Source: Escherichia coli O157:H7 (GTDB lineage Bacteria > Pseudomonadota > Gammaproteobacteria > Enterobacterales > Enterobacteriaceae). Taken from it: a DNA stretch of 64,000 nucleotides. Numbering within the stretch: the first letter of the stretch is position 1; the number at the start of each line of letters is the position of its first letter. Below the pieces are notes generated by a model. The model was not told the DNA's origin and did no database searches. It worked only from the letters and a program-made list of their open reading frames with translations. Location: NCBI RefSeq assembly GCF_013167455.1, contig NZ_CP038328.1; one strand, written 5' to 3'. The position numbers and the translations under genes are program-made. Shown in pieces: positions 22,704 through 63,873 of the stretch.

Positions 22704-23025
22704 AATAAAATGACAGTCTTCTTATTTATGAGGATTAATTCTCAGATTTGTAAAGTTTAAATCTTAAAAAAATCTATATTTAACGTAATTCTTTACGTTT
22801 TTTCTGGCAGAGCTTTTGCTATAAGGCTTAGAGATGGTTTTCTTAATATCGGGTATGGATACAGCCCACTAGCCGTACCTGTTTATTTGACGTCAAATAA
22901 AATTTTTCAAGCCATTAATATATATACCAATTAAACAAGATTCATTGTAAAAAATTTGAATTATTTTGAATTGGAATATATTTAATAAGTGAGAGTGATA
23001 TTAATTTGTTAAGTTTGAGGTGAAA

Positions 23026-24231
23026 ATGGGATATAAAGTAAAGAAATTCATCATGAGTAGTGGAGAGCGAGGATGCCTGATCCTTGATAAAAAAAGTAAT
23101 CTACCAACTTACTATCAAAATCTATTTCTTACTACAGACATAAGAAATAGAGGCGCAACGGCCTCAACGATGGAAATAGTTGCAACTAACTTACTAATTT
23201 TCAGTAATTTCTTGGATGGTAGGGGAATTGATATAATTGAGAGAGTTGAACTTAAAAAATATCTCAGCGTTGCAGAAATAGATGATCTGGTAAGATATGC
23301 GAAACAAAGATTCGACAGACAAAAAATCATAAATATAAAATCGACAAATTATAGGTTTATTGCGAAGAGAACCTTTAGTTATAGAATACACGTTTTTTCA
23401 CGCTACCTTAAGTGGTTATGTGGATTAGTTCATTCGTCAAAGGGGATTCATGCAAAGTATGAAGTAGACGTATTTATTGAAAGTATCAGAGCACATATTC
23501 CAAGAAACAGTTCATTGAATATGAATGAAATATCTGAAAAATCGTTGAATGAAGAAGAGATCAAAGTGCTTTTCCGTCTATTGGAAATTGGCGGGATTGA
23601 AAACCCTTTCCATAAGGAAGTACAGGTCAGGAACAGACTAATATTTACCTTGCTCTTAAATTTAGGTTTAAGGGCTGGAGAGTTGCTCAATCTTAAAATA
23701 GATGATTTTGATCTCAGAGACAACACTTTAAGTGTAGTCAGAAGACATGATTCAAAAGAAGATGGAAGATCTTATCAACCATTAGTAAAGACTGGAGAAA
23801 GGGTTATTCCGTTATCTGATGAGTTAGCCCGTGAAATTTTTGATTACATAAGCAATAGCAGAGAAAAAATGACAAAAAGGAAAAAGCATAATTTCTTATT
23901 TGTGGCTCATTGCACCGGAAAAAACGCAGGAGAACCCTTAAGCATTTCAGCTTATGAGAAGGTGATATCAACACTGAAACGAGCAAGTCCAGAGCTATAT
24001 AATCTTTCAGGCCATAGGTTAAGGCACTCTTGGAATTATATGTATTCTAAAGGAATAGAAGGTGCTGAATTAGAATATAATAGAAGGAAAGATTTAAGGA
24101 ATTATTTAATGGGTTGGTCAAAGGAGTCAATAATGTGTGATAGATACAACTATAAATATATATCGCAACAAGAGAAGGATGTCGTCCTAAAGGTCTATAA
24201 ATCAGTAAGTAAAATAATTAGTGGAGTTTAG
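23026..24231 (+). CDS. Tyrosine recombinase, first of three tandem genes
   Basis: Catalytic-box motifs visible in translation: LGLRAGELLNL (Arg), VKTGERVIPL (Lys), GHRLRHSWNYMY (H-x-x-R-H), C-terminal RYNYKY (Tyr); AT-rich. Confidence 0.75.
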   Translation: MGYKVKKFIMSSGERGCLILDKKSNLPTYYQNLFLTTDIRNRGATASTMEIVATNLLIFSNFLDGRGIDIIERVELKKYLSVAEIDDLVRYAKQRFDRQKIINIKSTNYRFIAKRTFSYRIHVFSRYLKWLCGLVHSSKGIHAKYEVDVFIESIRAHIPRNSSLNMNEISEKSLNEEEIKVLFRLLEIGGIENPFHKEVQVRNRLIFTLLLNLGLRAGELLNLKIDDFDLRDNTLSVVRRHDSKEDGRSYQPLVKTGERVIPLSDELAREIFDYISNSREKMTKRKKHNFLFVAHCTGKNAGEPLSISAYEKVISTLKRASPELYNLSGHRLRHSWNYMYSKGIEGAELEYNRRKDLRNYLMGWSKESIMCDRYNYKYISQQEKDVVLKVYKSVSKIISGV

Positions 24232-32441: not shown

Positions 32442-33103
32442 ATATCTACGAAAGAATTGATGGCAGCAAATACCGAAATATTTGGGTAGTTGGCGATCTG
32501 CACGGATGCTACACGAACCTGATGAAAAAACTGGAGACGATAGGATTCGACACCAAAAAAGACCTGCTTATCTCGGTGGGCGATTTGGTTGATCGCGGTA
32601 CAGAGAACGTAGAATGCCTGGAATTAATCACATTCCCCTGGTTCAGAGCTGTACGTGGAAACCATGAGCAAATGATGATTGATGGCTTATCAGAGCGTGG
32701 AAACGTCAATCACTGGCTGCTTAATGGCGGTGGCTGGTTCTTTAATCTCGATTACGACAAAGAAATTCTGGCTAAAGCTCTTGCCCATAAAGCAGATGAA
32801 CTTCCGTTAATCATCGAACTGGTGAGTAAAGGAAAAAAATATGTCATCTGCCACGCCGATTATCCTTGTGATAAATACGAGTTTGGAAAGCCAGTTGATC
32901 ATCAGCAGGTAATCTGGAACCGCGAACGAATCAGCAACTCACAAGACGGGATCGTGAAAGAAATCAAAGGCGCGGACACGTTCATCTTTGGTCATACGCC
33001 AGCAGTGAAACCACTCAAATTTGCCAACCAGATGTATATCGATACTGGCGCAGTGTTCTGCGGAAACCTCACATTGATTCAGGTACAGGGAGAAGGCGCA
33101 TGA
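32438..33103 (+). CDS. Lambdoid Ser/Thr protein phosphatase (NinI / PP-lambda family)
   Basis: Metallophosphatase motifs GDLHG, GDLVDRG, GNHE; ATGA overlap with ninG. Confidence 0.8.
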
Positions 33104-33723
33104 GACTCGAAAGCGTAGCTAAATTTCATTCGCCAAAAAGCCCGATGATGAGCGACTCACCACGGGCCACGGCTTCTGACTCTCTTTCCGGTACTGATGT
33201 GATGGCTGCTATGGGGATGGCGCAATCACAAGCCGGATTCGGAATGGCTGTATTCTGTGGTAAGCACGAACTCAGCCAGAACGACAAACAAAAGGCTATC
33301 AACTATCTGATGCAATTTGCACACAAGGTATCGGGGAAATACCGTGGCGTGGCAAAGCTTGAAGGAAATACTAAGGCAAAGGTACTGCAAGTGCTCGCAA
33401 CATTCGCTTATGCGGATTATTGCCGTAGTGCCGCTACGCCGGGCGCAAGATGCAGAGATTGCCACGGTACAGGCCGTGCGGTTGATATAGCCAAAACAGA
33501 GCAGTGGGGGATAGTTGCTGAGAAAGAGTGCGGAAGATGTAAAGGCGTCGGTTATTCAAGAATGCCAGCAAGCGCCGCATATCGCGCTGTGACGATGCTA
33601 ATCCCAAACCTTACCCAACCCACCTGGTCACGCACTGTTAAGCCGCTGTATGACGCTCTGGTTGTGCAATGCCACAAGGAAGAGTCAATCGCAGACAACA
33701 TTTTGAATGCGATCACACGTTAG
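33100..33723 (+). CDS. Late-gene antitermination protein Q
   Basis: 207-aa ORF at the canonical position after the nin genes; Cys-rich motifs [10 protein letters not shown] and CGRCKGVGY. Confidence 0.7.
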
Positions 33724-33960
33724 CGCCATGATTGCCACGGATGGCAACATATTAACGGCATAATATTGACTTTTTGAATAACTTTGGGGAAACTTGACAC
33801 CAATAATGGGCGTTTTTTACATGTCATTGATGAGTCTCAATAACCTGCCGCCGAGTAGTTTTTATGCTCTGAATTGTATTTGTGTAGTAAACATGCTGAC
33901 TGCAATGTAATAGAGTTTTTTTAGCCTGTAACCTCTTGACGGCATTGAATTGCTTTTGTT

Positions 33961-34719
33961 ATGAGTTGTAAGCCAATGTTATCATCTTGTATTGGGGTGG
34001 TTATGAAGGATGGTGCGCTGCTCAGGAGTTCTTCACTTTTTATTGCCTACATGGGATGCCTTGGATGGGGGAGTGCTTATTTCTATGGATGGGGTACTTC
34101 TTTTTACTACGGCTTCCCATGGTGGATTGTAGGTGCAGGTGTTGATGATGTTGCCAGAAGTTTATTTTTTGCAGTTATCGTCATTGCTATATTTCTTATC
34201 GGTTGGGGTATTGGTGTTGTATTCTTTTTCGCAGTGAAAAGAAAACATTCTATGCAAGAGCTAAATGTATTTCGCCTTTATTTTGCTGTGGAATTATTGT
34301 TTGTGCCGGCAATTATTGAGTTTTCTATATTGAGACAGAAGATTCAGGTACCTCTTTTGCTACTGTCAGCAGCGATTGCGCTGGCGGTCACAATTTCGAT
34401 AAGATCTTATGGGCGATTTTTATCGGTATCATGCTTCTATGATAAGCCATTTATAAAAAAACATTTTTTTGAGATTGTGATGATTGCTTTTGTGGCATAT
34501 TTCTGGCTTTTTTCATTTCTGACAGGATATTACAAACCGCAGTTTAAGAAAGAATATGAAATGATTAATTATAATGATGGTTGGTATTATGTTCTTGCTC
34601 GTTATGATAATTGTCTGGTTTTGTCTACTTCTTTCAATGCAGGTAGTAAAAGGTTTGTGATTTATCAATCAGCACAAGATAAGAATCTTCAGGTTGATAT
34701 TGTAAGGACCAGAATTTAA
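33961..34719 (+). CDS. Polytopic membrane protein of unknown function at the Q-downstream cargo position
   Basis: 252-aa ORF with several hydrophobic helices rich in W/F/Y/G and a hydrophilic C-terminal tail; AT-rich; occupies the interval where stx lies in Stx phages. Confidence 0.5.
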   Translation: MSCKPMLSSCIGVVMKDGALLRSSSLFIAYMGCLGWGSAYFYGWGTSFYYGFPWWIVGAGVDDVARSLFFAVIVIAIFLIGWGIGVVFFFAVKRKHSMQELNVFRLYFAVELLFVPAIIEFSILRQKIQVPLLLLSAAIALAVTISIRSYGRFLSVSCFYDKPFIKKHFFEIVMIAFVAYFWLFSFLTGYYKPQFKKEYEMINYNDGWYYVLARYDNCLVLSTSFNAGSKRFVIYQSAQDKNLQVDIVRTRI

Positions 34720-35139
34720 TTGGCTGCATAAATAATATTTTAAGTTGCAAGTTGGCTATTCGTAGGAATAGAACCTTAGGCATGCTGAATGCGTTTTCTG
34801 AACATTGTTTTATAAACTGTGTCTGCTTGCTGTTGTGATCCTGCTTTTAGTGATGGTGATGATGGATTTCACCAGCAGGATAATGTTGGTACTGACTGAT
34901 GGCGCTCTGGTCTGCGGCATTGTGGTATTGCTGTGGCCGGTGATAAAAAGAAACAGCCTGCATAATGCTTGATTTTTTTGTTTACTGTTTATTAAAAATA
35001 CTACTGCATGGTGAATCCCCCTGTGCGGAGGGGCAATCAGCAACCAGGTATATGTGATAATCGCGGATTCAGGTGCTGATACTGAATTCACCGGGAGGCA
35101 CCCGGCACCATGCAAGAAAAAGAATGTGCATGCAAACAT

Positions 35140-35166
35140 GCCCCTCTCCGGAGGGGCATTTTTTAT
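35140..35166 (+). terminator. Rho-independent terminator in the Q-to-nanS-p intergenic region
   Basis: gcccctc-tccg-gaggggc hairpin followed by atttttta. Confidence 0.6.
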
Positions 35167-35379
35167 GGGTAAAAAATGCCCGAATGGGTTCGGGCAATAG
35201 CATGAGATACTGATATTGTTGTGTTGTTATCGTGTGGATTTTAACCAGGGTTTATCAGGCTGCGCAACTGCGTGGCCTTTTTTCATTTCTTGGGCTGTAG
35301 TCCCCGTGTGTCATTCAGGCTTCCGGACTACAGCCCACTCCATATCTGATTTAATACACTATCCCGGCCGGGAGGAATA

Positions 35380-45520: not shown

Positions 45521-45883
45521 TGGTGGAGCTGGCGGGAGTTGAACCCGCGTCCGAAATTCCTACGTCCTCGGTACTACATGCTTAGTCAGTCTTTACATTC
45601 GCTTGCCAGCTGCGGACGGACACGCCACTAACAAACTAGCCTGATTAAGTTTTAACGCTTCAACCCCAGGCAGGGCTTCCACGCGATCTCTTTTGGGTTT
45701 GACCTCTCTTGATCCCCGTCCTAAGAGCGGAGGCTAGGGAGAGAGGGCTCTAAGCAGGTTATTAAGCTGCTAAAGCGTAGTTTTCGTCGTTTGCGACTAT
45801 TTTTTGCGGCTTTTTACGAGGCCAACCGCCCCTCGGCATGCACCTTGGGTTTCGCAAATCCCGTCGAATCCAGAATCAGCCCC
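45521..45883 (-). ncRNA. ssrA: tmRNA (SsrA)
   Basis: Reverse complement reads GGGGCTGATTCTGGATTCGACGGGATTTGCG...tag-peptide region...GGAGCTCCACCA, matching remembered E. coli tmRNA over 363 nt. Confidence 0.95.
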
Positions 45884-63640: not shown

Positions 63641-63676
63641 CAATAAAAAAGGCCCCCCGATTTGGGAGGCCTTATT
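63641..63676 (-). terminator. pheA attenuator terminator
   Basis: ggcctccc...gggggcc hairpin followed by ttttttatt on the minus strand, between pheL and pheA. Confidence 0.7.
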
Positions 63677-63719
63677 GTTCTTCTTCGCATTCTGTTTCAC
63701 ACGACGAAACGCCTCCCAT

Positions 63720-63767
63720 TCAGGGGAAGGTAAAAAAGAATGCGAAGAAAAACGGTGTGTGTTTCAT
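63720..63767 (-). CDS. pheL: pheA leader peptide PheL
   Basis: Minus-strand ATG AAA CAC ACA CCG TTT TTC TTC GCA TTC TTT TTT ACC TTC CCC TGA = MKHTPFFFAFFFTFP (7 Phe in 15 codons). Confidence 0.85.
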   Translation of the reverse strand: MKHTPFFFAFFFTFP

Positions 63768-63873
63768 GTTTGTTTCCTTAAGTGACTTTAGTACAGTACC
63801 CGTACTGTTTTCACGCTGTCAACAAAAAACGCGCCCGAAGGCGCGTTGGCGATACACTCAATATAAAGGACTA

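Follow-up and report, generated by a model that had tools for sequence, protein, structure and literature searches.

What occupies the non-coding, hairpin-rich stretch in front of the prophage gene nanS-p in Escherichia coli O157:H7, and does any part of it control that gene? The window, by which we mean the whole stretch of DNA analysed, is 64,000 nucleotides from contig NZ_CP038328.1 (assembly GCF_013167455.1), and positions below are counted along it. The original prediction pointed to three structures between 34980 and 35345: a small hairpin, a terminator-like hairpin and a perfect inverted repeat shortly before the nanS-p start codon. All three are where it placed them, as the sequence, a terminator scan, an inverted-repeat scan and folding agree. 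What that description missed were the further helices of an STnc100-type RNA, a gene for AgvB with its own terminator on the minus strand, and a second plus-strand terminator, which we call T2. The locus as a whole is already known: it consists of two described sRNA genes and a leader. Since the hairpins belong to these two genes, with a conserved terminator and stem-loop after them, the region is mostly ordinary and already explained. The leader stem-loop, formed by the inverted repeat and called HP3 here, is a small, real and conserved feature that has no description in the literature searched.

The setting is prophage Sp17. Window positions 33500-37500 show 100% identity to Sp17 of E. coli O157:H7 Sakai, and positions 34700-35400, used as a query, are matched at 100% identity in several E. 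coli O157:H7 chromosomes. Window position w converts to position 3521618 - w of NC_002695.2; the EcOnc06 coordinates printed by Tree et al. 2014 (PMC4104026) refer to NC_002695.1, which is shifted by about 140 nt (the difference seen at stx2B). The tmRNA gene lies at 45521-45883, which fits a prophage adjoining ssrA. The order of genes is NinG, a phosphatase, Q, a 252-aa membrane-protein ORF, a 55-aa DUF3927 protein, the non-coding stretch, NanS-p, holin and lysozyme, and the landmarks needed here are the following.

33100-33723: antiterminator Q (Pfam Antiterm, 4e-58)
34805-34972: DUF3927 moron, 55 aa (Pfam)
35380-37233, plus strand: nanS-p, prophage sialate O-acetylesterase, ECs_3498, 617 aa (ORF; Pfam DUF1737, SASA and DUF6645; annotations)

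The Pfam domains of the last bear out its earlier naming as nanS-p. The non-coding region holds five terminator-like sites against 1.6 +/- 1.4 in shuffled sequences.

Several features around it can be mentioned in passing. The 252-aa ORF downstream of Q (33961-34719, plus strand) has no Pfam match; it is a 'membrane protein', ECs_3500, in Sakai and a 'frameshifted hypothetical protein' in the PGAP annotation of strain PV15-279. At its start, a promoter-like TTGTTA-18-TATCAT with an upstream TG (33956-33985, plus strand) is the sole candidate between Q and the morons. A scan of 33650-34050 found no terminator-like tR', and PR' and tR' of Sp17 were not located. On the minus strand, Sakai carries a call for a 109-aa hypothetical protein, ECs_3499 (34810-35139), antisense to the DUF3927 gene and to most of the STnc100-type sRNA; PGAP makes no such call in the identical sequence of PV15-279, and ECs_3499 is probably a spurious gene call. 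In the same identical PV15-279 sequence the prophage lysozyme gene is split by an IS1203-family element. Elsewhere in the window Rfam and ARAGORN report an ALIL pseudoknot, the frameshift signal of IS3-family elements (40345-40461, minus strand), a Phe leader (63643-63768, minus strand) and a tRNA-Met (15344-15419).

To which RNA do the first two hairpins belong? They fall within a single gene on the plus strand.

34969-34998, plus strand: candidate sigma-70 promoter of the STnc100-type sRNA (-35 TTGATT at 34969-74, 18-nt spacer, -10 TAAAAA at 34993-98)
34980-35170, plus strand: STnc100-family sRNA gene, EcOnc06 of Sakai Sp17 (Rfam RF02076)
35018-35033, plus strand: hairpin 1, CCCCU/AGGGG with loop GUGCGG, first internal stem-loop of the STnc100-type RNA (-8.8 kcal/mol)
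35138-35165, plus strand: hairpin 2, or T1, intrinsic terminator of the STnc100-type sRNA (terminator scan, last Rfam helix)

The RF02076 covariance model matches over positions 1-206 of 206 with 144.7 bits, against a gathering score of 47. Hairpin 1 is a paired helix of the Rfam consensus structure and its sequence is nearly invariant among homologs. T1 (AUGCCCCUC-UCCG-GAGGGGCAU at 35138-59, followed by TTTTTT; nine pairs, six of them GC; -18.4 kcal/mol) is a GC-rich stem-loop with a U-run, which is what defines an intrinsic terminator; its reading as a terminator, made from the outset, is upheld both by the terminator scan and by its place as the last helix of the Rfam model. The genomic context is likewise that of STnc100, downstream of Q and a moron and upstream of late genes. 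Tree et al. 2014 (PMC4104026) reported, for Sp17 among other prophages, 'convergent sRNAs' that are flanked by a moron CDS behind PR' and by a conserved phage ORF; their Table S2 places EcOnc06 in Sp17 with a Northern band of about 177 nt, and the RNA has an Hfq CRAC peak and is Hfq-bound. The Northern probe for EcOnc06 is antisense to 35048-35082 with one mismatch. Hairpin 1 thus lies within, and T1 ends, the Hfq-bound plus-strand STnc100-family sRNA EcOnc06. This removes both from the control of nanS-p, given the Rfam match and the position of the EcOnc06 probe.

Set beside the other members of RF02076 (EcOnc06 and EcOnc27 of EHEC), the window copy is alike in its full-length match, its position between a moron and a sialate esterase gene, its intrinsic terminator, Hfq binding and visibility on Northern blots; nothing structural differs, and the PasD1 and PasD2 sRNAs of EPEC are relatives. 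The preprint of Zhu, Shabalina and Storz (2026) also relates STnc100 to the PasD sRNAs and associates it with a sialate esterase gene. In strain EDL933 eleven STnc100 copies are transcribed; one of these EDL933 copies, STnc100_11 (189 nt), has no ribosome footprints, and among the others the footprints vary widely.

Where transcription of EcOnc06 starts is less clear. TTG at 34969-71 and TTA.AA at 34992-97 are invariant across 13 homologous upstream regions, but a consensus promoter scan did not call the site, so we infer this promoter from its sequence and its conservation; the 5' end, at about 34973-35006, is uncertain. In most STnc100 copies (933W/L002, L004, L161, L101 and others) a conserved block, AAATGTTAAAT..TCACAATTCAG..TTGAC, precedes the Rfam start by about 60 nt. 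It is absent from the window and from locus L013, where the DUF3927 gene abuts the sRNA, and its absence may explain why EcOnc27 of Sp5 measures about 235/247 nt and EcOnc06 of Sp17 about 177 nt. In some prophages nanS-p is preceded by two or three STnc100 copies in tandem (L094, 1-592; L161, 503-989).

The arrangement extends well beyond Sp17. Of 16 diverse loci, 13 have STnc100 in front of nanS-p, the opposite strand carrying AsxR or AgvB. In phage 933W, homology runs from window position 34988 to the nanS-p start and corresponds to 933W 22789-23209; stxB2 ends at 22702 on one side of it and L0105 starts at 23189 on the other. Since the homology begins at 34988, the moron junction lies at the 5' end of the STnc100 gene; an element boundary had been suggested at the inverted repeat, and this is not where it falls.

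The opposite strand holds the second sRNA gene.

35232-35171, minus strand: agvB2 (EcOnc01b), anti-GcvB sRNA of 62 nt (Rfam RF02702)
35196-35177 (stem) and 35176-35171 (U-run), minus strand: AgvB2 terminator (terminator scan)
35267-35238, minus strand: putative agvB2 promoter (-35 TTGCGC at 35267-35262, 18-nt spacer, -10 TAAAAT at 35243-35238), placed by sequence relative to the 5' end at 35232

The RF02702 match reaches 96.5 bits against a gathering score of 56, and 62 of 62 positions equal the consensus; an overlapping AsxR match stays below threshold (43 bits against 63). In the 5' variable region of AgvB2, CGAUAACAACACAACAAUAUC, lies the GcvB R1 target consensus CACAACA, a motif defined by Tree et al. 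2014 (PMC4104026). The same work placed EcOnc01b/AgvB2 in Sp17, determined its primary 5' end by RLM-RACE, showed its dependence on Hfq, and found that agvB1 and agvB2 of Sakai relieve GcvB repression of dppA and that the double deletion is less competitive in bovine rectal mucus. The 62-nt minus-strand AgvB2, then, sponges the GcvB seed. Compared with the AgvB/AsxR anti-sRNAs (RF02702/RF02703), the window copy is the described gene AgvB2, with no difference. AgvB2 converges on the STnc100-type sRNA, and the inverted-repeat scan shows T1 and the AgvB terminator back to back (repeat I3). The -35 box region, TGCGCAA, is invariant in 39 leader variants. Because AgvB affects the competitiveness of EHEC in bovine rectal mucus, recognising it matters for reading O157 prophages.

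The plus strand across agvB2 deserves a remark of its own. Rfam gives weak matches, below threshold, to GcvB (20.7 bits) and OmrA-B (20.9 bits), which cover 35136-35284 and end exactly at the U-run of T2; the antisense of AgvB is here GU-rich and GcvB-R1-like, and a terminator follows it. A read-through or late transcript of this form would titrate AgvB and would at the same time be similar to the GcvB seed. A promoter that would give a separate plus-strand sRNA over 35136-35284 was looked for and not found.

Beyond agvB2, and partly overlapping its promoter, is the second plus-strand terminator.

35257-35284, plus strand: T2, predicted intrinsic terminator (terminator scan)

T2 has the form AGGCUGCGC-AACU-GCGUGGCCU followed by U6 (nine pairs, six of them GC; -14.9 kcal/mol), again the sequence that defines an intrinsic terminator, and RNAalifold predicts it independently. 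The -35 box of agvB sits in its stem-loop, in the 5' arm and loop, so T2 could be conserved for the sake of that box as much as for termination. It is annotated neither in 933W nor in the other records inspected. In a lysogen T2 would stop polymerase that leaks past T1 or starts at the STnc100 or moron promoters; as such a back-up it would hold nanS-p and the lysis genes off until polymerase modified by Q passes it. The terminators that flank morons or lie in the late operons of lambdoid phages (tR' and those around the tRNA and stx genes of 933W) are similar to T1 and T2, being GC-rich hairpins with U-runs on the late-operon strand, and by analogy read-through of T1 and T2 by Q-modified polymerase would be expected as well. 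What sets T2 apart from them is that it contains the -35 box of an opposite-strand promoter.

We consider it very probable that the whole arrangement is the Sp17 copy of a 'convergent sRNA' module of lambdoid prophages, flanked by the moron insertion site behind PR' on one side and the conserved late gene nanS-p on the other, within which T2 and HP3 would have their roles. What is HP3, then?

35291-35337, plus strand: HP3, nanS-p leader RNA, 13-bp perfect stem and 21-nt loop (-28.0 kcal/mol)
35364-35379, plus strand: nanS-p ribosome-binding region, small hairpin CCC-GGCC-GGG beside the Shine-Dalgarno sequence GGAGG (35371-75)

The original prediction gave the repeat 12 bp; it is indeed perfect and its spacer is indeed 21 nt, but its arms, TGGGCTGTAGTCC (35291-35303) and GGACTACAGCCCA (35325-35337), are 13 bp long. 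It ends 42 nt before the ATG at 35380 (43 nt counting from the 12-bp arm, which ends at 35336). In the window it is the second-longest perfect close inverted repeat, where simple arithmetic would lead one to expect about 0.06 such repeats. HP3 is not a terminator, since neither strand has a U-run after the stem (what comes next is CTCCATATCTG on the plus and AGAAATGAAAAAAGG on the minus strand), and neither a scan nor inspection by eye found a promoter in the interval from T2 to HP3 or immediately ahead of HP3; it therefore neither ends nor starts a transcript. A small ORF across T2 and HP3 (35216-35380, 54 aa, TTG start) was treated as spurious: Pfam has no match for it, and 933W-type leaders lack its stop/start overlap. 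Rfam has nothing for 35285-35379 at E<=1, and a search of the literature likewise found no account of a terminator or stem-loop in front of nanS-p.

How well is HP3 kept? The 130 nt at 35250-35379 occur in 1191 of 5426 complete E. coli genomes, at a median of three places per genome. A sample of NanS-p loci (160 from viral contigs and nine from E. coli genomes) shows several designs of leader.

Type A, the window: HP3 is a 13-bp perfect stem
Type D, locus L004: HP3 is a 16-bp stem with G.U pairs, UUGCGGGCUGCGGUUC/GGACCGUGGCCCGCAA
Types B and C, 933W and L047: HP3 has an 8-bp base, an internal loop of one or two mismatches and a 4-5-bp top
Types F and G, L094 and L161: HP3 is a weaker form of the B/C design
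Types E and AT-rich, L013 and L024: without HP3

The commonest homologs, of the 933W and L047 types, have one or two internal mismatches, so a perfect stem is not required; several nanS-p alleles, with MSIK-type or AT-rich leaders, do without HP3, which makes it dispensable for the expression of nanS-p. In the E-type leaders (L013, L017, L038 and L058; MSIK start) T2 is kept, and about 90-40 nt before the ATG a short hairpin replaces HP3 and is followed by a second small terminator-like element, CCGG(T/C)TCCGGCTTTTT. One variant of the A-type hairpin (in L008 and L046) carries a short duplication, CAGCCAGCC, in the 3' arm and has a stem 2 bp shorter.

When a degenerate HP3 pattern was searched in viral contigs, 89 of 120 matches were genuine and 31 were chance matches in unrelated, mostly GC-rich phages; in genome contigs it gave chance matches in GC-rich genomes only. 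The distance from HP3 to the nanS-p start is 43 nt (37 in type D) in all 89 genuine copies, and T2 precedes 84 of them. Folding and covariance across homologous prophages had been proposed as a check. In an alignment of 39 distinct T2-HP3 leaders RNAalifold found T2 and HP3 as the only consensus helices; the specified structure pairs 88.9% of cells, against 33-40% when the partners are slid by one to three columns. Seven pairs change on both sides (CG/UA at the base; UA/CG and AU/GC in the middle). Over the whole alignment there are 112 G.U or U.G cells against 11 A.C (about 10:1), divided into 57 against 5 in HP3 alone and 55 against 6 in T2. The excess of G.U speaks for plus-strand RNA, for neither a minus-strand RNA nor a DNA palindrome would give this bias. 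The spacer between the arms ranges from 17 to 27 nt among homologs. The sequences recombine and are close relatives, which makes the covariation statistics soft, supportive rather than conclusive. Even so, the repeat is conserved in homologous prophages and it covaries, the opposite of what had been named as grounds for dismissing it. From the fixed distance to the ATG, the compensatory changes, the G.U bias and the variable spacer we infer that HP3 is a stem-loop of the plus-strand nanS-p leader RNA and not a DNA site.

Where the HP3 loop meets the 3' arm (35324-35329), a GGA is invariant in 39 of 39 leaders, its pairing partner being C or U. A second GGA, about 46 nt downstream, lies in the Shine-Dalgarno sequence GGGAGGA (35366-35376), which is invariant in the same 39 variants, and CCGG precedes both. 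A CsrA dimer binds two GGA sites at such spacing.

Could all this be conservation without function? T2 and HP3 might be islands kept by linkage to nanS-p and the agvB promoter, serving only as crossover points between mosaic prophages. Mosaic junctions do fall inside T2, at the base of HP3 and at the Shine-Dalgarno sequence (L047 compared with 933W, L021 and L048), and the stem is imperfect in most homologs and missing from some nanS-p leaders. Linkage would hardly, however, keep a stem through compensatory changes (UA to CG, AU to GC, CG to UA), produce so strong an asymmetry of G.U over A.C or hold the distance to the ATG constant in every genuine copy; moreover, the homology boundary with Stx phages is near 34988, not at T2 or HP3. 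We regard the absence of function as rather unlikely.

If HP3 is RNA, one might suppose that it represses translation, its pyrimidine-rich loop UGUCAUU...CUUCC pairing with the nanS-p Shine-Dalgarno sequence and start codon, GGGAG...AAUGACA. The 18 nt at 35309-26 are 72% complementary to 35368-85, and in 933W a UGCCAU stands opposite AUGGCA in apparent covariation. Yet real loops show no gain in duplex energy over shuffled ones (p 0.08-0.92 in 23 variants), TGTCAT or TGCCAT occurs with ATGACA or ATGGCA in all four combinations, and the D, F and G variants have no anti-start motif. Translational repression by HP3 is very unlikely, and pairing of the loop with the ribosome site was rejected on the shuffled controls and the four combinations.

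The inverted repeat had also been read as a possible operator, the alternative to an RNA structure linked to nanS-p. A dimeric regulator of phage or host would then bind the 13-bp half-sites and control nanS-p or the divergent agvB promoter. The perfect 13-bp dyad would suit this, as would the location of HP3, which relative to the agvB promoter lies upstream, from about -60 to -105. An operator should not, however, tolerate so wide a range of arm spacings, nor would it accept differences between its arms as G.U in preference to A.C, a distinction relevant to RNA and not to a DNA palindrome. The half-site, moreover, searched also as the 12-mer, has no other exact copy in the 64-kb window, and no promoter-like site adjoins HP3 on the plus strand. 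Of these two readings, the RNA structure stands and the operator is very unlikely indeed. The original framing, in which the whole interval would hold no genes of its own and serve only as a structured leader regulating nanS-p in cis, could appeal to its intergenic place on the sense strand upstream of nanS-p; it is scarcely credible and was refuted by the transcripts of Tree et al. 2014 (PMC4104026), two sRNA families scoring above their gathering scores here and Northern blots, RLM-RACE, Hfq crosslinking and deletion phenotypes having been published for this locus.

Returning to HP3 as a stem-loop of the leader RNA, what might it do there? Some speculative suggestions can be made. The most likely role, which we put forward tentatively, is that of a determinant of late-mRNA stability or processing. 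Over 35171-35232 the late transcript can pair with AgvB at every position. Perfect duplexes of sense and antisense RNA are normally cut by RNase III, and the duplex of AgvB with the late transcript should, given this complementarity, be cut as well. After such a cut T2 and HP3 would stand near the new 5' end and would shield the nanS-p/lysis mRNA from decay that depends on the 5' end. They could equally block 3' exonucleases and so protect the upstream RNA.

Parallels in other systems exist. The ompA leader is a 5' stem-loop that stabilises its mRNA, while the T7 early sites and lambda sib are hairpins processed by RNase III. HP3 resembles them, by analogy, as a predicted stable stem-loop that lacks a U-run and lies in the leader, or between cistrons, of a long phage transcript. 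The likeness is one of mechanism only: HP3 has no sequence relation to RNase III sites or the ompA leader, and its 13-bp stem is shorter than typical RNase III sites.

Bolder, and in our view somewhat improbable, is the suggestion that T2 and HP3 jointly form an undescribed cis-acting RNA motif in the leader of the nanS-p/lysis unit, one that, beyond the sRNA/moron module, sets the survival of the late transcript antiterminated by Q. It might do so by protecting the mRNA end left when antisense RNAs of the AgvB or AsxR type direct cleavage of the late transcript; the invariant GGA in HP3 could also be a protein-binding site. About one complete E. coli genome in five has the T2-HP3 leader, and most of these have it in several prophages.

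Whatever the role of HP3, the main value of the analysis is one of correct annotation. A seemingly empty, hairpin-rich intergenic stretch, left unannotated by PGAP and in the phage GenBank records inspected, is a compact RNA module of four parts, and the STnc100/PasD sRNAs, to which one part belongs, rank among the most abundant prophage sRNAs. If T2 and HP3 do control the survival of late mRNA, they would bear on the yield of NanS-p and of the lysis proteins at induction. In Stx phages, where the module follows stx2B, they would then also bear on the timing of toxin release.
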